Below are positions 568 to 62,336 of a stretch of DNA of 64,000 nucleotides, piece after piece. This stretch comes from Candidatus Woesearchaeota archaeon (GTDB lineage: Archaea > Nanobdellota > Nanobdellia > Woesearchaeales > JABMPP01). Position 1 is the stretch's first letter; every line of letters starts with the position of its first letter. Under the pieces are notes generated by a model. The model was not told where the DNA came from. It searched no databases and saw nothing but the letters and a program-made list of their open reading frames with translations. The position numbers and the translations under genes are program-made. The stretch is taken from positions 15,257 to 79,256 of the forward strand of contig JAGVYD010000011.1 in NCBI GenBank assembly GCA_018303405.1, in the 5' to 3' direction.

Positions 568-909
568 TCAACTGTTTTCCTTTTTCTTTTTTTCTGCCTC
601 ATCCTGCATGCTCTTTTCTGTGCCTGCTGCAATTGCATCCTTGGCAATTTTAACAATATATTCTGGCGTGATTCCCACAAGCTTCATGTCATGCTTTTCA
701 ACAATGCCCTCAAGAAGCTTGAGCATGTCTGCTTTTTCGAAGAAAATGCTTTTTCCAATGAAAATTTCCTCCAGCTCATTGATTTTATCTTCAGGATGTA
801 TGAAGAAATCCCCTGTTATTGCAGCTGAGAATATTTTGCCATTGTCAAAATTAAGCTTTACCCTAACCAATTTTCCGCCCGGGACCTTTTCGCTTGCCGT
901 GCCTATCAT
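568..909 (-). CDS. Lipoate-protein ligase C-terminal domain protein (LplB-like)
   Basis: 113 aa. Motif pattern GKLVRVKLNFDNGKI...ITGDFF..PED matches the C-terminal accessory domain of bipartite archaeal lipoate-protein ligases. Recognised by family similarity from memory only. Confidence 0.4.
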   Translation of the reverse strand: MIGTASEKVPGGKLVRVKLNFDNGKIFSAAITGDFFIHPEDKINELEEIFIGKSIFFEKADMLKLLEGIVEKHDMKLVGITPEYIVKIAKDAIAAGTEKSMQDEAEKKKKENS

Positions 910-1034
910 AAGTCAAAATCCCCCCTATAATATCACAATATCCTACTACTAACTACTTCTGGCGGCTGATATTATAATAAGCTTTGCACTGGCCTGCCTC
1001 TTTATTATGCATCCCTGGCCATGCTGCTTAAGCC

Positions 1035-1339
1035 CAGTTGAAAATCTCGCTCACAAAGTTCGCTCGGTCAGCATCGGCTTCGTGCTTTATGATTTATGAA
1101 TGATGTCGTATCCCCGCAACGGTTTCGCCCCTTGACGACGAAATTAGCCTTGAGGGGATTTTCGTTACACTCAATCCCCTGAACTCCATGCTGATTAAAA
1201 TGCGGTTCGGGAGACTTCCAAAGGAATGTCTCCCCGGCTTCCGTGCGAACTGAGGCCGGCTTAGGGACGACCCCCTCCGGCATTGACATGCCTATGCGAG
1301 GAGCACTGCGCAACTTGATGCTGACACTATTTTCAACTG
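1035..1339. ncRNA. GC-rich highly structured intergenic element, candidate ncRNA of unknown class
   Basis: About 300 nt, much more GC-rich than its flanks. Termini are complementary (1035-1045 cagttgaaaat with 1329-1339 attttcaactg; 1067-1075 gtcagcatc with 1317-1325 gatgctgac). Multiple internal perfect hairpins, e.g. AGGGGATT...AATCCCCT, GGGAGAC...GTCTCCC and GCCGGC...GCCGGC. Contains one copy of the ~50-nt hairpin repeat also found near tRNA-Ser. The overlapping 131-aa minus-strand ORF is probably a shadow ORF. Confidence 0.3.
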
Positions 1340-1440
1340 AGCACATGCTGCTTAATAACCAATAAAAACATTTATAATGCTGAATGTTAAATACCTTCTT
1401 ATAGATATTTGTATACAACATAAAGGGAAAAAGAGGCCAC

Positions 1441-2409
1441 ATGCCAGTCTTTGAAATAACCAAGGCAGATTTCAGCAGGTTCTTGCAGGATATTATGAAA
1501 AACTATGAGCTTATAGCCCCTGTTAAGACTGACCTTGTAAGATTTCAGCCAATAAAGGACATCTCTCTCATCCACCTTGCAGAAAATTCATTTTTTCCAG
1601 TCAAAGAATTTTTTTTCAGGAAGCAGGAAACACTGTTCACTTTTAATGGCGGGAAAATTGAAGTAAAGCTTGATGCTCCAAAGAAAAGGGCTTTTTTTGG
1701 GCTGAGAAGATGCGACCTGAACGCCATAATGCACCAGGACAGGGCATTCCTGTCAAATACCCCTGACCCATATTACAAAGCGCAGCGCGATGGAGCCCTG
1801 CTTTTAGGCTATCACTGCAACGAAGCGCCAAGCATCTACTGCTTCTGCGGCAGCATGGACCTAAAGGATTTCTTTGACATCATGTTCTTTGACAGGGGGC
1901 GCTGCTACCTGGCCGAGACTGGCAGTGAAAAAGGCGAAGCAGTGATTGCGAAGTCAAAAAAAATGTTCAAGCCAAGCAATTACAGCATTACCGAGTCTGA
2001 CAAGAAAATTGAGGGCACGGACCGGCTGCTCAACAAGGATATTTCTGAACTGTACGACCACCCGGACTGGAAAAAGGGAGTGGACATGTGCATAAGCTGC
2101 GGAGCATGCACAAGCCTTTGCCCGACCTGCTACTGCTTTGAGGTGCACGACCAGACGGAGTTAAAAGACCCAAAAAAATCAAAGCGGGAAAGAACATGGT
2201 CATCATGCCAGGTGAAGGAATTTACCAAGGTTGCAGGCGGCCATGTATTCAGGGACAAGCGGGAGGACAGGTTTAAGCACCGCATCTATCACCAGCTGGA
2301 GTATTTCAGGGAACAGCACGGCATTGACTTATGCGTTGGCTGCGGAAGATGCATAACAGCATGCCCGACCAAGATTGATTTTGTAAAAATAATCAATGAG
2401 ATGAAATGA
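1441..2409 (+). CDS. hydB: Sulfhydrogenase-type [NiFe]-hydrogenase beta subunit (Fe-S protein)
   Basis: 322 aa with two ferredoxin-like Cys clusters (CISCGACTSLCPTCYC and CVGCGRCITACP). First gene of a B-G-D-A subunit order typical of group 3b sulfhydrogenase. Confidence 0.75.
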   Translation: MPVFEITKADFSRFLQDIMKNYELIAPVKTDLVRFQPIKDISLIHLAENSFFPVKEFFFRKQETLFTFNGGKIEVKLDAPKKRAFFGLRRCDLNAIMHQDRAFLSNTPDPYYKAQRDGALLLGYHCNEAPSIYCFCGSMDLKDFFDIMFFDRGRCYLAETGSEKGEAVIAKSKKMFKPSNYSITESDKKIEGTDRLLNKDISELYDHPDWKKGVDMCISCGACTSLCPTCYCFEVHDQTELKDPKKSKRERTWSSCQVKEFTKVAGGHVFRDKREDRFKHRIYHQLEYFREQHGIDLCVGCGRCITACPTKIDFVKIINEMK

Positions 2410-5478: not shown

Positions 5479-6210
5479 TTATGCCAGCTTCCTGTAAACA
5501 TCGCCGTACAGGGAATAGCTGAACACTCCAACCACAAAAAACATCACTGCCAGGCCTATGAACAGCACCAGGTTGAGCAAGGCGGCAATTATGGCTGAGC
5601 ATATCAGCACAATTATCCATGTCAGGAAATAGTCTCCAGAAAAGGCCATGCCGAGCACTTTCCTGAACTGGAACGCGCTGCCAAATTTATTGGTTGCAAC
5701 GTAGTTCAGGACAGCCATCGGCAACATGTACCATGCCAAAAGCGCAAACAGGAATGCCAGCAACAGGATTGGCGCAAATGCCATTACCGCAGGAACTGCC
5801 TGGTACCAATTTTGCCTCAGGATAGCTTCAAGCGCCGCAGCATCGCCACCACCGGCAGCGAACTCCTTAACCATGTCAATCGGCACAATTGTCCCAACAT
5901 AGGTCCTGAAAAGCGAAACCAGGAAGGTTGCCGAGCCAATCATTGCGATGATCAATGCGGGAAGCATGTAAATTACAGTAATAACTGTTGAGGCAAGCCC
6001 CTTCACAAACATTTCACCCCAGTTTTCCCATTCCTGCAATTTGGCCGATGCCTTAACTTTTCCAACACCTGATGATTCCAGGATGTAACCCTTTGTAAAC
6101 CATTTAACAATTGGTATGAGGCTCAGGAGAACCCCTATAATGAACGCTTTCCAATTTGTAAATGGCTTCTTTATAGCTTTCGCAAAATCTACCATCTTTT
6201 CACCACCCAC
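5479..6210 (-). CDS. Hypothetical polytopic membrane protein
   Basis: 243 aa with several hydrophobic helices (e.g. FIIGVLLSLIPIV, LAFLFALLAWYMLPMAVL). No recognisable catalytic motif. Confidence 0.4.
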   Translation of the reverse strand: MGGEKMVDFAKAIKKPFTNWKAFIIGVLLSLIPIVKWFTKGYILESSGVGKVKASAKLQEWENWGEMFVKGLASTVITVIYMLPALIIAMIGSATFLVSLFRTYVGTIVPIDMVKEFAAGGGDAAALEAILRQNWYQAVPAVMAFAPILLLAFLFALLAWYMLPMAVLNYVATNKFGSAFQFRKVLGMAFSGDYFLTWIIVLICSAIIAALLNLVLFIGLAVMFFVVGVFSYSLYGDVYRKLA

Positions 6211-6293: not shown

Positions 6294-6662
6294 TTATAGT
6301 AGTTCAAGCTTGAGGCGCTTTTCCAGCTTATCCATGGGATATTTGGCCGGTACAGCAATAAGCCTGACTTTGGACTTTGTGTTGAGCTTTTTCAGCAGCT
6401 TAAGGAAAAAAGCAAGGTCAAAGTCATGCAGGCTGACCATTTTGGAGGATTCAAGCTGTGCAAGATCGCTTATCACCTGAGCCTCCTTGATTCCCGTGGC
6501 CACATCAAGGATGGCAAAATCCTTGTCCATGTAGAACATAATCTCTTCCGGGGAGTTGCAGCTGACCATCTCAATCCCGTCCAGCTTGAGCCTTTTGGCT
6601 GTCTGCTGGGCAAGACTGTCATCCTTAACATAAGGGTTTCCGAAACATAAGACATATTTCAT
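6294..6662 (-). CDS. Hydrogenase maturation endopeptidase (HycI/FrhD-like)
   Basis: 122 aa. N-terminal VLCFGNPYVKDDSLA resembles the GNxxxxDDGxG signature of hydrogenase maturation proteases. Located immediately downstream of the hydrogenase structural genes. Confidence 0.55.
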   Translation of the reverse strand: MKYVLCFGNPYVKDDSLAQQTAKRLKLDGIEMVSCNSPEEIMFYMDKDFAILDVATGIKEAQVISDLAQLESSKMVSLHDFDLAFFLKLLKKLNTKSKVRLIAVPAKYPMDKLEKRLKLELL

Positions 6663-6668
6663 GGCTGA

Positions 6669-7637
6669 ATGGCTTCAAATGTGATAAAATATATAAATAA
6701 TGCCCTGCTTTTGGATGGCATGAAAAAAGAGATGGCACTGGCTTCTGTTCTGGCTACAGCTGTTATCAGCGGCTTTGCCATATTTGCCAATAAATTTGGA
6801 GTTACAGGAATCAATAGTTCAGTTTATACCTTTGCCAGGCTAATCATTGTGGCTGCCTTTATGTTTGCAACCATCTTTTTTTTGGGCAATTTCTCACAAT
6901 TGAAAAAGCTTTCACGTAAGCAATGGCTGTCATTGGCCGCGGTCGGGCTGGTCGGCGGGTCCATCCCATTTTTACTGTTCTTTCGCGGGCTTCAGCTTGT
7001 ATCAGGCCCTGCAGGGTCGTTTATCCAGAAGACAATGTTCATTTTTGTGGCAATTGTTGCAGTGGCATTCCTCAAGGAAAAATTAAACCTTGGTATGATA
7101 GTCGGCGGGATTCTGCTTCTCGCTGGCAATTTCATCTTCCTGCAATTATGGACACAGGATTTTGCATGGGGCACAGGCCACACCTTGGTCCTGATTGCCA
7201 CTCTGTTCTGGGCAGTCGAGAACACCTATTCAAAGTATTTGCTCAGAAACATGCCTGGCAATGTGCTTGCATTCGGGCGAATGTCCTTTGGCTCACTATT
7301 CATATTGGTTTATCTGGCCTTTACTGGCGAGATTGCCCTTATGGCATCCTTAACCCAAGACCAAATGTTGTGGATTCTTGCAACTTCAGTCATATTGTTT
7401 GGCTATGTCCTAACCTGGTACAATGGATTAAAAGACCTAAGCGTCACAGCCGCGACCAGCATACTATTGCTGGGCTCGCCAATCACAACAGCACTAAATC
7501 ATTTTTTTTCAGATGCAGCTATTATTCCCGCACAAATCCTGGGCACGGTCATGATCCTGGCAGGGATTATTATAATGCTGGTCATTGCGGAAAAAATCAC
7601 TCTGCCATTTCAACAGCAAAGCCGTGATGTATCCTGA
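6669..7637 (+). CDS. EamA/DMT-superfamily transporter
   Basis: 322 aa with about 10 TM helices in two homologous halves, typical of drug/metabolite transporter family proteins. Confidence 0.65.
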   Translation: MASNVIKYINNALLLDGMKKEMALASVLATAVISGFAIFANKFGVTGINSSVYTFARLIIVAAFMFATIFFLGNFSQLKKLSRKQWLSLAAVGLVGGSIPFLLFFRGLQLVSGPAGSFIQKTMFIFVAIVAVAFLKEKLNLGMIVGGILLLAGNFIFLQLWTQDFAWGTGHTLVLIATLFWAVENTYSKYLLRNMPGNVLAFGRMSFGSLFILVYLAFTGEIALMASLTQDQMLWILATSVILFGYVLTWYNGLKDLSVTAATSILLLGSPITTALNHFFSDAAIIPAQILGTVMILAGIIIMLVIAEKITLPFQQQSRDVS

Positions 7638-8106
7638 CCTTGTCGCCTTTCTTGGCGCCAGGCACATAGAATGAACCTACAACCCTTGTTTTTCCCCTGC
7701 CGTATTTCACAATGAAGAAATCATCCCTTTTCTCGATTATCTCTGCCGTGTGCACCTTGCACAGTTCCCTGAAAACATTTGGCGCGATTGCATAAGAGCC
7801 ATCGCCCGCTTCAATCATGGCGTTGTGCCTGTTGTGAAAATATTCTCTGATTACCTTCAAATCCCAATGGCTCCTGATGCCCATGCTTTCAGCCACGCGA
7901 TCCATCCTTTCAAATGCCTTCCTATATGTGCTTTCCAGAAGCTTCCTTCCAACTTTTCTGTTGTGCATGGCAGCGTTTTCCAGCGCCCTGAATGTCCTGT
8001 CATTTATCTCCCCGCGCTGCTTAATAACATAGGTGCACGGGAATGCGTACCTAAGAAAATAGCTTTCAACTGACACTGCCTTGGGCAGCTTAGCAGGCTT
8101 TGCCAC
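7597..8106 (-). CDS. Hypothetical protein adjacent to hypC
   Basis: 169 aa with no recognised domain. The C-terminal segment GDKVRIHHGFAVEM is reminiscent of the HypC OB-fold tail (GDYVLVHVGFAIE), but there is no MC N-terminus. Convergent overlap of 41 nt with the EamA gene. Confidence 0.3.
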   Translation of the reverse strand: MAKPAKLPKAVSVESYFLRYAFPCTYVIKQRGEINDRTFRALENAAMHNRKVGRKLLESTYRKAFERMDRVAESMGIRSHWDLKVIREYFHNRHNAMIEAGDGSYAIAPNVFRELCKVHTAEIIEKRDDFFIVKYGRGKTRVVGSFYVPGAKKGDKVRIHHGFAVEMAE

Positions 8107-8302
8107 TATGGATCATCTCCAGCCATCTCTCAGCTGCTTTTTTGTTGACTTTCTCAATCACGATTCGGCCCTGCACAATAACATAATCGCCTGGCCTGTA
8201 TTTCCTCTCCACAATTTTTGCCTTTCTTTTTTCAGTGTCGTAATCTATGGTTGCCATGTCTTTGCTGATCTTCAGGATTTTTCCAGGATAGGCCAGGCAC
8301 AT
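8090..8302 (-). CDS. hypC: Hydrogenase maturation factor HypC
   Basis: 70 aa starting MCLAYPGKI, the MCLAIP signature of HypC/HupF. Confidence 0.85.
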   Translation of the reverse strand: MCLAYPGKILKISKDMATIDYDTEKRKAKIVERKYRPGDYVIVQGRIVIEKVNKKAAERWLEMIHSGKAC

Positions 8303-8655
8303 CAGTTTTTCACCTTTTTTGCTTTTTTTACGGTTACCTGCCTTATCCTTATATCCCCACCTTCATAAAGTTTTGGGACTTTTCCGCATTTTTCGCAGAC
8401 ATAAAGGCAGAATTCATGCCCCCTTTCAAGCACTTTTGGATGGCCTGAATGGCCACAGTTGCATTTTGCCTTTGCTTTTATCTCCTTTATCTTTATTTTC
8501 CACTTTGTAAGCGTTTCAAGAATTTCCCTTAGTTCATGGTCATGTATCGGGCCAAGTTCTCCAACGTCGAGGATGATTGACTCTATTTCCCCACCTTTTC
8601 CGGCTTTTTTCTGCGCATCATCAATTATTCTTCTTGCAATGACAGTTTCGTGCAT
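8302..8655 (-). CDS. hypA: Hydrogenase nickel-incorporation protein HypA
   Basis: 117 aa starting MHE. Two CxxC pairs (CNCGH...CEKCG) forming the HypA zinc site. Confidence 0.85.
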   Translation of the reverse strand: MHETVIARRIIDDAQKKAGKGGEIESIILDVGELGPIHDHELREILETLTKWKIKIKEIKAKAKCNCGHSGHPKVLERGHEFCLYVCEKCGKVPKLYEGGDIRIRQVTVKKAKKVKN

Positions 8656-8671
8656 TTTCTTTTGCCTCTTT

Positions 8672-8950
8672 TTATATTATCTCTTTACTTGATTTTAATT
8701 GTAACGTGCCAACGATGAGAATGAGTTGTTGCCAATTTCTAAGCTCTTTTGGAATGACAAGTTCTTTTCCAATTGTTGATTTATCAATCTTATTTAATAA
8801 GCCTAATCTTCTAGTTTCTAAATCTAGCTCTTTTTCTGTTTTAGCTTTCCTAACTCTATCTGCAGTTTCTATCCTGCCATGAGAAACCTTTGTTTTTGTA
8901 ACAGAGTCACTTAGGTTTTTGTCTTTGATGTATTTCTGTTCATTTGACAT
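8672..8950 (-). CDS. Small hypothetical protein (possible AbrB/MazE-like DNA-binding fold)
   Basis: 92 aa encoded in a markedly AT-rich stretch. The C-terminal VIPKELRNW weakly resembles the swapped-hairpin IPKEIR motif. Weak call. Confidence 0.2.
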   Translation of the reverse strand: MSNEQKYIKDKNLSDSVTKTKVSHGRIETADRVRKAKTEKELDLETRRLGLLNKIDKSTIGKELVIPKELRNWQQLILIVGTLQLKSSKEII

Positions 8951-9143: not shown

Positions 9144-10058
9144 GTGCCAACAACAAACGAAATAGTGAAAATTTATACAAAAATACACTCTATTAGGGCA
9201 GTTTCCCGGCAGACTCACATTTCGAGGACAAAAATTAGGAAAATTCTTATTGAAACCGGAATCAGAATTCCAGATAGCAGAACGGCCCAACTGGCTGTAG
9301 GTTATATCCAAGAAAAGAAGAAGTTCTGCCTTTCTCCTCAAGAAAAAGCCTATTTATACGGGTTAGTGATGGGTGATCTAACTCCTATCCTGAAATCTAA
9401 ATATACTTTAAAACTTATCACAACTTCTACTCATAAAACTTTCATGGAAATGCTATGTAAAACTTTTAAAAAATACGGGATAACTAATCATAAGGAAACT
9501 AAAAATAAAAATACGTTTAGGTTTCAAAGTCACATTGATCTGGAAAGTTTTTTATTTCTATTGGATACAAAAAACAAATGTATGCCTACTTGGATAAAGG
9601 CTCATAACTTTTACAATTTCCTTGGCGGGTTTATAGACTCTGATGGCAGTATTATTGTTAGGAAATCTGGCAATTACTTTCAATATGTTATTAGATTTTT
9701 TAGTCAGAATCTGGACCTTCTGCTTGAAATAAAAAGTAAACTGAAATCCATTGGATATCATCTTTCCATACACAAAAGTCATTCTAAGGGCCACATTAGT
9801 TATCATAAAAACGTAAAGTTTCAATACAACAGGAATTATTATACTCTTGAAACCTACAAAAAGGAAGAAACTTTAGATTTACTGGGAAAGATACCTATTA
9901 GACACCCCGAAAAAATTGCAAAAAAGAACCTGATATTTGATATTTATCGTCGAAAACTTGTATTGTGGAAAGATATTGAAAATCAAGTCAAAGAATTAAG
10001 AGAAAAAATAAGACAATCAGTAATACAAAGAAAGGCACTATCATCCCCAATATGTTAA
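9144..10058 (+). CDS. Free-standing LAGLIDADG homing endonuclease with N-terminal HTH domain
   Basis: 304 aa with two LAGLIDADG motifs (LYGLVMGDLTP and FLGGFIDSDGSIIV). N-terminal about 45 aa looks like a helix-turn-helix. Encoded in AT-rich DNA. The 3' end overlaps the 3' end of rtcB by 71 nt on the opposite strand. Confidence 0.8.
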   Translation: MPTTNEIVKIYTKIHSIRAVSRQTHISRTKIRKILIETGIRIPDSRTAQLAVGYIQEKKKFCLSPQEKAYLYGLVMGDLTPILKSKYTLKLITTSTHKTFMEMLCKTFKKYGITNHKETKNKNTFRFQSHIDLESFLFLLDTKNKCMPTWIKAHNFYNFLGGFIDSDGSIIVRKSGNYFQYVIRFFSQNLDLLLEIKSKLKSIGYHLSIHKSHSKGHISYHKNVKFQYNRNYYTLETYKKEETLDLLGKIPIRHPEKIAKKNLIFDIYRRKLVLWKDIENQVKELREKIRQSVIQRKALSSPIC

Positions 10059-27994: not shown

Positions 27995-28078
27995 GCGGAG
28001 GTGCCGGAGCGGCCAAACGGGATGGGCTTAGGACCCATTGGCTTAGTGCCTACGCAGGTTCGAATCCTGTCCTCCGCA
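27995..28078 (+). tRNA. tRNA-Leu (anticodon UAG), type II with long variable arm
   Basis: Folds manually: acceptor GCGGAGG/CCTCCGC, 3-bp D-stem, anticodon stem ATGGG/CCCAT with loop CTTAGGA (anticodon TAG), about 15-nt variable arm, T-loop TTCGAAT, discriminator A. Confidence 0.8.
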
Positions 28079-59789: not shown

Positions 59790-59836
59790 ACTTTAGGGCA
59801 ATAGCAGCATTCTGGCTTTATTGTCCTGGAAGATAT

Positions 59837-59886
59837 TTGGCACGGAAGGCAGGGAGACGCTCGCTTTGCTCGGTCTCCCGAACTGC
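59837..59886 (+). repeat. 50-bp hairpin repeat, copy 1
   Basis: ttggcacggaaggcagggagacgctcgctttgctcggtctcccgaactgc. Identical to copy 2 and contains the GGGAGAC...GTCTCCC inverted repeat. Confidence 0.8.
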
Positions 59887-59933
59887 ATTTCTTAGGTAAG
59901 ATTTATAATGCGTCATTAAATCCAATATACTGT

Positions 59934-59950
59934 GCCGCGGTCGCTTAGCC
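59934..59950 (+). other. Duplicated 5' fragment of tRNA-Ser (17-19 nt) with its own TATA-like box
   Basis: GCCGCGGTCGCTTAGCC is identical to positions 1-17 of the tRNA-Ser at 60124. Preceded by gatttataatg at about -30, which looks like an archaeal TATA box. The sequence diverges after TAGCC. Confidence 0.6.
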
Positions 59951-59964
59951 ACAACTGGCCTCAG

Positions 59965-60014
59965 TTGGCACGGAAGGCAGGGAGACGCTCGCTTTGCTCG
60001 GTCTCCCGAACTGC
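59965..60014 (+). repeat. 50-bp hairpin repeat, copy 2
   Basis: Perfect 50/50 identity with 59837-59886. A third, diverged copy (GCACGGAAGcCgGGGAGAC...GTCTCCCGAACcGC) lies on the minus strand at 1202-1250. Confidence 0.8.
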
Positions 60015-60123
60015 GACTATCGGCAATAGGGACGGGAATCAATAGCGATTATAACTTTAAAATTACATCGCGTCGGGGAATTTTATGTTCCCCCCGTTTT
60101 TACCAGATTTTTGTTAAAAATCT

Positions 60124-60253
60124 GCCGCGGTCGCTTAGCCCGGTATAGCGCTGGATTGCTAGATACTGTATAACTAGTGTCTTAGAAACCTACTATACCA
60201 TGCAGACATCCAGTGTCCGCAAGGACTCGGGAGTTCAAATCTCCCCCGCGGCG
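60124..60253 (+). tRNA. tRNA-Ser (anticodon GCU) with 46-nt intron at canonical 37/38 position
   Basis: Manual fold: acceptor GCCGCGG/CCGCGGC, D-arm, anticodon stem CTGGA/TCCAG with loop TTGCTA-[intron 60162-60207]-A, long variable arm (GTCC GCAA GGAC), T-arm GGGAG TTCAAAT CTCCC, discriminator G. Oligo-T tract follows. Confidence 0.8.
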
Positions 60254-60290
60254 CTTTTCTTATTTTATAAGGAAGTGAAACGCCAAAAAA

Positions 60291-60560
60291 TTAGTCCTTT
60301 CCCATAAATTTACCAATATACTCCATTATTTTCTCTTTCTTTTCAATATTTATTGAAACATGCTTTCCATAGCCTGTCTTTTTCAAGTACAAAATCCCCT
60401 CTTTAATCAATTCTTCAGAGATTTCCTTAACTCTCCCTTTCAAATCGGGAGGAAAGCTCTTTGCAAGATTCTCAAAGGCAGTGTGGCTATGTTCAAACTT
60501 CCCTTTGCGCGTAAGCTTGTGCAAAATCTTTCCTTTAATCTGTGAATCATTCCACGTCAT
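60291..60560 (-). CDS. Small hypothetical protein (possible winged-helix)
   Basis: 89 aa in AT-rich DNA just 3' of tRNA-Ser. Weak wH-like pattern (GILYLKKTGYGKHVSIN). Confidence 0.25.
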   Translation of the reverse strand: MTWNDSQIKGKILHKLTRKGKFEHSHTAFENLAKSFPPDLKGRVKEISEELIKEGILYLKKTGYGKHVSINIEKKEKIMEYIGKFMGKD

Positions 60561-60632
60561 AAGTCCACCAGAATAGACTTTGAAAGGTTAAATTTATATA
60601 CTTTTCTGTTTATTCAATATCAAGGTAAAAAA

Positions 60633-60962
60633 ATGGAAGAAAAATCGTTATTGCTTAATTTGACGGGAGACTTGCCTTTATTTAGAATAATTGATTTTCT
60701 GCTTGAAAACAAAGGGATGGACTACAGCAAGACAGACATCGCCAAGGGTGCAGGGATTTCAAGGGCATCTTTGTTCAATTACTGGATAGAATTGGAAAAA
60801 CACAGGCTGATAAAAACAACAAGAAGCTTTGGCAAGACAAAGCTGTATACCCTAAACGTTAGCAATCCAATTACACAAAGGATTATTGAGCTTGAGAAAA
60901 CATTGATAAGCGAAGCCATGAACAAAGCTGTGAAGAAAAAAGAAATTTTGGTTGAAAATTGA
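60633..60962 (+). CDS. Winged helix-turn-helix transcriptional regulator, putative
   Basis: 109 aa. DIAKGAGISRASLFNYWIELEKHRLIKTTRSFGKTKLYTL is a typical HTH recognition helix plus wing. Confidence 0.5.
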   Translation: MEEKSLLLNLTGDLPLFRIIDFLLENKGMDYSKTDIAKGAGISRASLFNYWIELEKHRLIKTTRSFGKTKLYTLNVSNPITQRIIELEKTLISEAMNKAVKKKEILVEN

Positions 60963-60996
60963 GTTATTTTTCTGAAACCTTTATTTTTATATATCT

Positions 60997-61587
60997 CTAT
61001 TCTTGTTTGTCAATTTCCCATTCAATTTCTGGATAATGCCTTGGCTTAATTTTCTTGATATTTTTTAATACATACTTTTTGAGTTCTTCCCCATTTTCCT
61101 TTGAATAAGCCCGTACGTTTCCATAAAAGAAATAACTTCCTTTTTGACTCTTGACAATAAGTGCACTGATATAATCATTTACCTTCAGCAAGTTTGGAAA
61201 ATCAATTGTTTTAATTAAGTACTTTTTACTATCTATTACATTCTTAATTAGATAATCTTTTCTGTTAATATGCACAACTTGAAAAAGCGAGTCATTGTAT
61301 TCAACAAAGTTTCTTATAATCTTTCGGTCATTTTTTGTAAAGAAGTCAAGAGGGAATAGCAGTGCATATTCCATTGGCGTTGCGCCCTTAATTTTTCTTT
61401 GAAGCAGAAAATATGATAAGAATCCACTATAATAGGTTGTATCATCTTTTGCTGACTGTGCCTCTTGTGTTGCCTGAAACTCTTTGTTCGCTTTTTGTAA
61501 CTCTTTAGGGTGCAGATTGTTTATGAAACCAAGCACTTTTCTAATCACTTTTGTTTCTGGCTGTATTTTACCCCTTGTCATAATCAA
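60997..61587 (-). CDS. Hypothetical protein (196 aa), third gene of AT-rich cassette
   Basis: About 30 percent GC. Overlaps the upstream gene by 20 nt. No motif recognised. Confidence 0.3.
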   Translation of the reverse strand: MIMTRGKIQPETKVIRKVLGFINNLHPKELQKANKEFQATQEAQSAKDDTTYYSGFLSYFLLQRKIKGATPMEYALLFPLDFFTKNDRKIIRNFVEYNDSLFQVVHINRKDYLIKNVIDSKKYLIKTIDFPNLLKVNDYISALIVKSQKGSYFFYGNVRAYSKENGEELKKYVLKNIKKIKPRHYPEIEWEIDKQE

Positions 61588-61951
61588 AGCCCATTTTCTC
61601 CAAATCTATTCTCAAATACTTTTCCTGCAGGTCATAAACAGTATTATACAAATAATCATTATCCCATTTTGTAAAAATCCCGATATTTTTATGAATACTT
61701 TCTATTAGTTCCATTGGTTTGAGTGATGGCATTGTCATAAAGAAAAAGAAGAAAATTTTATCGTATATCTTTATTGTCACATCAATAAGCTTATATTTTA
61801 CAGAAATAGCTTTTAAAGCATTTCTTAGCCCTTCTTTTTCCTGTATTGTTTCATCATTCATAGTTTTATGACAGTAGAAATATCCTCCTTGGTGCACTGA
61901 GTGGCTGAATTTGTATAATTTTCTTCCTCTTTTATCAACTTCAATCTTCAT
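61568..61951 (-). CDS. Hypothetical protein (127 aa), second gene of AT-rich cassette
   Basis: Translationally coupled to flanking genes (4-nt and 20-nt overlaps). No motif recognised. Confidence 0.3.
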   Translation of the reverse strand: MKIEVDKRGRKLYKFSHSVHQGGYFYCHKTMNDETIQEKEGLRNALKAISVKYKLIDVTIKIYDKIFFFFFMTMPSLKPMELIESIHKNIGIFTKWDNDYLYNTVYDLQEKYLRIDLEKMGFDYDKG

Positions 61952-62229
61952 CTTACATCCAGCCCTTTCATTTTCTTCAGCTTGCTCTGGGGGTTAAATG
62001 TCCAGAGCACTTTATCATCGGAGAAGACTATTTTTCCGCTATATGCCAGATAATCCAATATTGCAATCACTGTCTGATGCATCACCTGCTTTGGCAGCTT
62101 TCTTTTCAATTCAGCAACCGATATCAGACTATCAGCTTTTTGCAGAGTATCCTCTACCATAAGAACTGTATTTAAGGTGGGGCTTCTTTGTTCTGCATAG
62201 TTCCTTGTCTTTAAGGTTATTGTTTGCAT
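61948..62229 (-). CDS. Hypothetical protein (93 aa), first gene of AT-rich cassette, possible wH domain
   Basis: ISVAELKRKLPKQVMHQTVIAILDYLAYSGKIV resembles a winged-helix recognition helix. Weak call. Confidence 0.3.
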   Translation of the reverse strand: MQTITLKTRNYAEQRSPTLNTVLMVEDTLQKADSLISVAELKRKLPKQVMHQTVIAILDYLAYSGKIVFSDDKVLWTFNPQSKLKKMKGLDVR

Positions 62230-62336
62230 ATCAACTGATATAATATCAACTGATATATAAACTTTTCTATTTTTATGTTAATTAAATCAGTGAGTTTAAT
62301 AAACAACTAGGCATTCTCAAGTAAAAAAGTGGTAAG

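Follow-up and report, generated by a model that had tools for sequence, protein, structure and literature searches.

MITEs (miniature inverted-repeat transposable elements) are represented in prokaryotes by the Correia elements of Neisseria, the ERIC/IRU sequences of enterobacteria and SM1-SM4 of Sulfolobus, and MITEs are often transcribed. Long duplications of variable length are made by some insertion sequence (IS) elements, such as IS1634 and IS1549. Repetitive extragenic palindromic (REP) sequences are not known to be bracketed by duplicated pieces of genes or tRNAs. Here, we analyzed a 64,000-nt stretch of DNA from Candidatus Woesearchaeota archaeon (contig JAGVYD010000011.1, assembly GCA_018303405.1; hereafter the window), in which a structured segment of about 300 nt between lplB and a hydB-like gene had been proposed as an unannotated RNA resembling signal recognition particle (SRP) RNA, RNase P RNA or a processed small RNA with a closing stem. 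The segment does lie between these two divergent genes, in a spacer (910-1440) that measures 531 bp rather than the ~490 bp first reported. It belongs to a discrete, structured, non-coding element at 1032-1343, which is neither random spacer nor a decayed gene. In our judgment this element is probably a non-autonomous, non-coding, MITE-type mobile DNA element and not a missed housekeeping RNA, because it has exact boundaries, is bracketed by flanking repeats that are specific to each copy, occurs at unrelated loci with no shared promoter and has no coding capacity.

The evidence for mobility comes from a second full-length copy. A hairpin-pattern scan of metagenome contigs returned nine loci, the window's own contig not being among them, and one locus, recovered in two samples (L017 and L022), held a full-length homologue that was ~83% identical overall to the window copy in a pairwise alignment (nhmmer E 6e-54). 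The gene beside this homologue encodes an NAD-dependent epimerase 100% identical to QS98_C0002G0019 of archaeon GW2011_AR3, and the hydB-like protein of the window is 100% identical to QS98_C0011G0086 of the same archaeon, a DPANN member from Rifle aquifer groundwater that belongs to the Woesearchaeota going by the names of related assemblies. Thus, the two elements are paralogues within one organism, and the window together with the nine scanned loci yielded two full-length copies, on different GW2011_AR3 contigs. The second copy sits in an extremely AT-rich spacer between a 116-aa open reading frame (ORF) and the epimerase gene, a context unrelated to the lplB/hydB locus.

Similarity between the two copies starts and stops at the ends of the inverted repeats, and the flanks cannot be aligned. 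Both copies are enclosed by perfect direct repeats, the repeated sequence being CATGCTGCTTAA (12 nt) in the window and AGCAATTTC (9 nt) in L022. In 20,000 trials with pairs of random 20-mer flanks, at least 9 nt were shared in a fraction of 0.0005 and 12 nt in none. With the direct repeats as limits, the element is 312 bp long in the window and 308 bp long in L022. The window copy ends in the terminal inverted repeats GCCCAGTTGAAAAT/TGCTCAGTTGAAAAT, which match at 13/14 positions (a hand count after a 1-nt register shift), and the L022 copy in GGCTCTGTAGAAAAT/GGTTCTGCAGAAAAT, which match at 13/15; the arms differ between the copies, and within each copy both arms have changed together. MITEs were taken here as elements under ~600 bp without coding capacity, and at 312 bp and non-coding the window element is of this kind. 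It likewise has inverted repeats at the exact limits of homology and a target-site-like duplication specific to each copy, although the lengths of the duplications differ (12 vs 9).

Removal of the element and one copy of the direct repeat leaves a 207-bp AT-rich divergent promoter spacer, which is comparable in length to the DNA preceding hydB in the nearest relatives (142 bp and 219 bp). Neither of those two short spacers contains a homologue of the element, and the gene neighbourhoods around them are unlike that of the window. Among other hydB homologues, the closest one whose contig could be retrieved shares only 64% amino acid identity, so an orthologous comparison of the spacer is not possible. 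Coordinates of the element and of related features are given in Table 1.

Table 1. Coordinates of the element, its parts and related features in the window (numbered from the first nucleotide of the window).
Feature	Position	Strand	Remarks
lplB (lipoate-protein-ligase C-terminal-domain gene)	568-909	-	gene left of the spacer
Left flanking direct repeat CATGCTGCTTAA, target-site-duplication-like	1020-1031	.	12/12 match to 1344-1355
Element body, non-coding, MITE-like	1032-1343, 312 bp	.	~83% identical to L022:1231-1542; nhmmer E 6e-54
Left terminal inverted repeat GCCCAGTTGAAAAT	1032-1045, perfect core 1035-1045	.	homology to L022 copy begins here
Second long-range stem, 9 bp perfect	GTCAGCATC 1067-1075 / GATGCTGAC 1317-1325	.	
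Third long-range stem	GTGC 1082-1085 / GCAC 1303-1306	.	
Module A	1143-1198	.	hairpin AGGGGATT/AATCCCCT (1153-1160/1173-1180) and flanks
Module B with hp2	1199-1270	+	covariance model R1: 79.9 bits
Right terminal inverted repeat ATTTTCAACTGAGCA	1329-1343	.	homology to L022 copy ends here
Right flanking direct repeat CATGCTGCTTAA	1344-1355	.	same 12 nt as 1020-1031
hydB-like gene (ferredoxin subunit)	1441-2409	+	first gene of a group-3-type NiFe hydrogenase cluster
Reconstructed empty window site			...CCCTGGCCATGCTGCTTAA joined directly to TAACCAATAAAAAC
Module-B copy 2, without hp2	59816-59889	-	R1 54.8 bits
Module-B copy 3, with hp2	59944-60017 (unit 59932-60017)	-	R1 78.2 bits
tRNA-Ser(GCU), intron-containing	60124-60253		Rfam scan of the window

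The initial annotation had noted complementarity of the element ends over 11 plus 9 nt, and both stems are indeed perfect. CAGTTGAAAAT (1035-1045) pairs with ATTTTCAACTG (1329-1339) over 11 bp, and the 1067-1075 arm of the 9-bp stem is invariant across both copies. What had been read as the closing stem of a stable RNA behaves, however, as a terminal inverted repeat, and a diverged second copy stands at an unrelated locus. Under the MITE-type interpretation, lplB and the hydB-like gene would originally have been separated by an ordinary divergent promoter spacer of ~207 bp, into which the element inserted. A transposase encoded elsewhere, presumably acting in trans by DDE-type transposition, would bind the ~14-15-bp terminal inverted repeats and insert the element at a staggered cut, the repair of which would leave direct repeats of 9-12 bp. 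The interior is pieced together from hairpin modules (A, B and hp2), which also exist as shorter repeats elsewhere in the genome. Together, the inverted-repeat ends and the sub-terminal segments would allow either strand, as single-stranded DNA or read-through RNA, to fold into a closed multi-branch shape.

Several observations weigh against this interpretation. No empty site was seen: all 16 metagenome contigs covering the window site carry the insertion, being 100% identical in whatever part of the spacer each contains, and every contig spanning the second locus keeps it as well. The window and the related loci L017-L026 (about 80-130 kb) yielded no transposase gene and no autonomous IS whose ends match, and a search limited to that DNA found no further copies of the inverted-repeat core. 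Full-length copies numbered only two, and the unequal length of their flanking repeats is unusual for a single DDE transposase. In addition, CCATGCTGCTTAA (1019-1031), which includes the left flanking repeat, is identical at 12/13 positions to CCATGCTGATTAA (1186-1198), a conserved segment inside module A, so that the flanking repeat is nearly duplicated within the element. The likeness may be accidental or may point to how targets are chosen; in the second copy, flank and internal segment are not alike in this way, and apart from this 13-mer the reconstructed empty site has no similarity to the repeat modules. Finally, pairing is conserved well past the terminal repeats, which is not required of a decaying selfish element.

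Two features of the second locus may be recorded here. One metagenome contig (L033) begins within the second copy, as would be expected if the repeat had interrupted the assembly. On another contig of this locus (L031), a gene at 7960-8838 with a faint RepB-primase C-terminal match lies upstream of the second copy, and ~150 nt just upstream of the element (9500-9650) are extremely AT-rich. This upstream region could be plasmid-derived DNA or an origin-like region.

We examined the structure of the element by folding and by comparison of the two copies. The 306-nt stretch folds at -105.4 kcal/mol on the plus strand (z -3.30 vs dinucleotide shuffles) and at -111.9 kcal/mol on the minus strand (z -4.35), and 0/100 shuffles folded as well on either strand. 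The element contains two perfect local hairpins of at least 7 bp, compared to an average of 0.3 in shuffles. These are GGGAGAC/GTCTCCC (1209-1215/1228-1234) and the module-A hairpin formed by AGGGGATT and AATCCCCT; the at least four perfect hairpins of 7-10 bp originally counted are reached only when both long-range stems are included. The claim that the element is far more GC-rich than the genome was likewise overstated. Its GC content is 51.5% versus 45.7% for the window (standard deviation 4.9% for 305-nt segments), a value that 8.7% of 305-nt segments equal or exceed, and it stands out only from its own spacer flanks (41% and 29% GC).

To evaluate pairing, each copy was folded alone, the substitutions of the other copy were laid on that fold, and the outcome was compared with permutations. 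Broken pairs numbered 16-20, versus 27-30 expected (P from <0.0005 to 0.013), and two-sided compensatory changes numbered 4-7, versus ~1.9 expected (P 0.0015-0.09), with similar results on both strands. RNAalifold predicted three long-range helices nested within one another, of which the first and third show compensatory changes; in the third, GTGC/GCAC in the window corresponds to GGCC/GGCC in L022, i.e. two compensatory pairs. The compensatory changes and the deficit of broken pairs indicate that pairing has been kept beyond the need of transposase-binding ends. The compensatory changes that had been suggested as a check were found here between paralogous copies. The folded molecule might be RNA or single-stranded DNA, from either strand.

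Such conservation would also fit a functional RNA. The element might be a structured non-coding RNA gene present in at least two diverged copies, in which a multi-branch RNA is closed by the terminal helices and uses the conserved hairpins for protein binding or tertiary contacts; the flanking repeats would then be incidental, or the gene would be carried on a mobile unit. We regard this explanation as possible but rather unlikely. It is favored by the significant stability of the fold on both strands, by the two-sided changes that keep long-range stems 1 and 3 and several local stems paired, and by the excess of compensatory changes and shortage of broken pairs relative to permutations. However, structure is kept about equally on both strands, as expected of inverted-repeat DNA. 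Outside the element the two copies have no sequence in common on either side, and hence no conserved external promoter or terminator, and the insertion signatures, with locus-specific direct repeats at both copies, are left unexplained. The MITE-type and RNA-gene interpretations are not mutually exclusive, because MITEs are often transcribed.

The element also failed to match any known RNA family. All 4227 Rfam models were compared by cmscan with the whole window at the gathering score and with positions 800-1600 at E <= 10. The former search returned only two tRNAs, and the latter only chance-level matches (snoRNA and long non-coding RNA fragments) in the AT-rich flanks, such that the Rfam search proposed in the initial annotation assigned nothing to the element. 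Self-cleaving ribozymes, tRNA, tmRNA and other Rfam families gave no match beyond unrelated ones at chance level (E ~1-9), and ARAGORN detected no tRNA-like gene in the element. Similarly, only tRNAs and chance matches were obtained at nine related loci (gathering score) and in the unit at L024 described below (E <= 10). The absence of any family even at E <= 10 argues against an RNA gene, and in particular against SRP RNA, RNase P RNA or a processed small RNA.

Individual candidates were considered separately. Archaea_SRP gave no covariance-model match at E <= 10 over 800-1600 or window-wide at the gathering score. RNaseP_arch gave none either, and inspection by eye found no GAGGAAAGUCC; a CR-V-like string, CCGGCUUA at 1256-1263, reads CCAGCUCA in the second copy and is hence not conserved. 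Searches by eye for SRP helix 8, RNase P CR-I/CR-V, 5S rRNA, a K-turn, a sarcin-ricin loop, hammerhead and HDV-like folds, group II domain V and integron attC boxes found none that fits, and the partial motif strings that were seen are not conserved in other copies. DNA similarity searches against plasmids and phages gave no match. Neither of two hairpin patterns matched the viral contigs, and in the genome collection the first pattern found nothing and the second a single distant module-B copy (L026).

The initial annotation had offered a decayed gene as the alternative to an RNA. The only sizeable ORF over the element, 131 aa at 1068-1463 on the minus strand, was indeed called as a gene by one annotation from JGI (L003). 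This ORF overlaps the hydB start codon, has no Pfam match and has no homologue except itself among 5.8 billion proteins. The second copy differs from the window copy by frame-breaking indels of 6, 1 and 4 nt, has no ORF of at least 80 aa across it, and keeps pairing with compensatory changes. A protein-coding gene or pseudogene was therefore rejected, and descent from a decayed coding gene is so improbable as to be effectively excluded.

The element contains one copy of a hairpin repeat, as first reported, and both a pattern search and a covariance model confirmed this. The pattern occurs three times in the window, versus 0.00 expected by chance. The repeat, module B, consists of a GCA/TGC stem, an internal loop, a GGGAGAC/GTCTCCC stem and a variable apical part, and is followed by a small hairpin, hp2; in the element, the internal-loop hairpin occupies 1202-1246 and hp2 1247-1262. 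The covariance model R1 detected the three window copies and 12 strong matches at 11 distinct positions in other loci, with L017 and L022 counted as one locus. Exact protein look-up assigned L018, L021 and L025 to GW2011_AR3, and L019 and L024 to the Woesearchaeota assembly J4227, which shares AR3 proteins. On the basis of these protein assignments, 12 module-B copies at 8 loci belong to this genome or a re-assembly of it, and they are mostly located beside tRNA genes or at duplicated gene ends. Module B also occurs in other organisms, in L023 (36% GC) and in L026, from a metagenome-assembled genome labelled Methanosarcinales.

Over 13 distinct copies of module B, 90.4% of pair cells were standard, compared to 33-50% when partners were slid. 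Two-sided changes were found in 8/20 module-B/hp2 pairs, for example TTCC/GGAA vs TTGC/GCAA, or GAC/GTC vs GAT/ATC vs GGT/ACC, and 0/500 shuffles reached the observed covariation score; the invariant loop strands were set by the search pattern and carry no information. This covariation of module B and hp2 is a further point in favor of an RNA gene. In contrast, wobble G.U and A.C cells are balanced (7 vs 8) and favor no transcribed strand.

The module-B copies outside the element occupy a characteristic setting. In the window, 59816-60123 contains two module-B hairpins and an orphan tRNA-Ser 5' end upstream of the real tRNA-Ser(GCU) gene. The orphan piece (59932-59949) is an 18-nt duplicate of the 5' end of that gene (60122-60139), is fused to the copy of module B with hp2, and has its own TATA-like box, TTTATAAT, ~30 nt upstream. 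At L024 (5590-7343), a ~60-nt tRNA promoter module and the first 7 nt of the tRNA (GCCGCGG) are present twice. The first copy heads an hp2-B-A-hp2-B array of ~270 nt that ends at a hairpin and T-run, while the second heads an intact tRNA-Ser(UGA) gene, after which comes a gene for a tyrosine integrase (PF00589, E 3e-13). With its duplicated tRNA promoter and its terminal hairpin and T-run, the L024 array resembles a transcription unit, which again would favor an RNA gene.

At L021 (7570-8440), nested and repeated orphan tRNA-Glu 5' fragments (GCTCCGCTAGTGCAGTC) are fused to unrelated hairpins and alternate with promoter modules and B-A-B, and an intact tRNA-Glu(CUC) gene follows downstream; module A lies ~25-75 nt upstream of both the tRNA-Glu gene and an orphan tRNA-Glu fragment. 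Protein-coding genes are affected similarly. B-type inserts separate two copies of a RIO-kinase gene 5' end (41 nt with 4 mismatches; L025 2586-2860), two copies of a gene 3' end (28 nt, perfect; L019 9530-9690) and diverged copies of a ribbon-helix-helix (RHH) gene 5' end (~75 nt; L018 10580-10830), and one gene copy stays intact in each case. At every tRNA- or gene-end insert, hp2 abuts the orphan copy. Candidate mechanisms include integrase-mobilized mini-elements, a transposase making long variable duplications, and recombination between shared tRNA promoter modules.

Such a shared module precedes different tRNA genes, at 60066-60123 in the window, 5610-5652 and 5900-5947 in L024 and 6705-6760 in L026. 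It comprises a covarying hairpin (GGGGAA/TTCCCC, GAGAGGC/GCCTCTC or GAAGGAC/GTCCTTC), a T-run and then TTTTTACCAGATTTTTNTTAAAAATCT. The tRNA-Leu gene at 27995 lacks it. In L026, positions 6600-7000 of an AT-rich contig carry module B-A, a Woesearchaeota-type tRNA promoter module and an intron-containing tRNA-Glu gene, and the bin label "uncultured Methanosarcinales" may be wrong. Directly 3' of tRNA-Ser(GCU), positions 60250-62250 of the window form a low-GC island (31-35% vs 46%) whose small ORFs have weak, sub-threshold helix-turn-helix matches or no Pfam match. This island is probably what is left of a mobile element that integrated here.

The settings of the tRNA-linked copies raise a third explanation for the window element, namely that it is what remains of a larger mobile element, for example a plasmid or virus carrying an integrase, after site-specific integration or recombination, with modules A, B and hp2 forming the arm beside an attachment site, as they might in the tRNA-linked copies. 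Consistent with this idea, duplicated gene ends flank the inserts (18 nt at the window tRNA-Ser; ~60 plus 7 nt at L024; 28, 41 and ~75 nt elsewhere), a tyrosine integrase gene lies directly 3' of tRNA-Ser(UGA) in L024, and the low-GC island follows tRNA-Ser(GCU) in the window. Moreover, minus-strand GGGGGTCGTCCCTAAGCC, next to hp2-B inside the element, resembles the tRNA-Ser 5' end GCCGCGGTCGCTTAGCC, as in the tRNA-linked copy. However, the window element has symmetric inverted repeats with duplications of 9-12 nt instead of an attachment-site-type gene-end repeat, neither full-length copy adjoins a tRNA or integrase gene, and identical boundaries would not be expected of two independent relics. 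We consider an integration relic improbable as the origin of the window element; this explanation fits the tRNA-linked copies better. The inserts at tRNA genes share modules with the element, which shows that its interior is built from material circulating around tRNA loci.

A broader and quite speculative proposal would unite these observations. The window element and the module-B/A/hp2 inserts might all be members of a single undescribed class of mobile units in the Woesearchaeota (DPANN) that are small, oriented and hairpin-structured. Units of this class would enter tRNA and protein genes at the 5' or 3' end, with a duplication of 18-75 nt of the target. The duplication might span a whole tRNA promoter, such that the interrupted gene would stay intact and an orphan promoter would be left to drive a structured RNA of ~150-270 nt. 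Movement could depend on an integrase acting on mini-elements or on a mechanism with a long, variable target duplication, and the window element, 312 bp long and with inverted repeats, would be a packaged derivative of such units. In this scheme, the covarying stems suggest that the machinery recognizes a single-stranded fold of RNA or DNA.

Overall, the initial annotation was largely right in what it observed and largely wrong in how it was interpreted. A candidate novel stable RNA of a DPANN genome is replaced by the better supported call of a MITE-like insertion. Elements of this kind are seldom annotated in uncultivated archaea, and they cause assembly breaks and spurious ORF calls, such as the 131-aa "gene" described above. 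More intriguing than the window element itself is the repeat family found at tRNA genes and gene ends. It covaries among paralogous copies within one small genome, beside duplicated tRNA promoters and gene ends, and could reveal an interaction between mobile DNA and tRNA loci in DPANN archaea.

In comparison with known systems, the element resembles SRP RNA and RNase P RNA in its length of ~300 nt, its paired 5' and 3' ends, its several internal hairpins and a GC content above that of its AT-rich flanks. It differs from them in lacking a covariance-model match at the thresholds tried and a helix-8 or CR-I/CR-V arrangement, and in occurring as two diverged copies with insertion signatures. Similar to MITEs, it is small (312 bp) and non-coding, has inverted repeats and short flanking direct repeats, lies in an intergenic promoter region, has strong predicted folding, and its copies end at the repeat ends. 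Unlike MITEs, it was seen in only two full copies, with no partner IS or transposase in the DNA searched; its flanking repeats of 9 and 12 nt are not of one fixed length; and its interior consists of hairpin modules that also occur alone at tRNA genes and gene ends. Module B with hp2, in turn, recalls REP sequences and bacterial interspersed mosaic elements (BIMEs), being a 70-nt intergenic hairpin repeat that is dispersed in one genome and has covarying stems. In contrast to these, its inserts are bracketed by duplicated pieces of neighbouring genes or tRNAs, and no RAYT/IS200-type gene was seen. The 18-75-nt duplicates of tRNA 5' ends and gene ends that flank the module-B inserts are reminiscent of tRNA-gene integrative elements and of IS1634/IS1549, and an integrase gene beside one tRNA with a module-B insert is a further likeness to the former. 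The inserts differ from both in being only ~110-300 bp long, in lacking inverted repeats and in sharing one conserved end (hp2) whatever the target, whereas the window element differs in having short duplications and clear inverted repeats.

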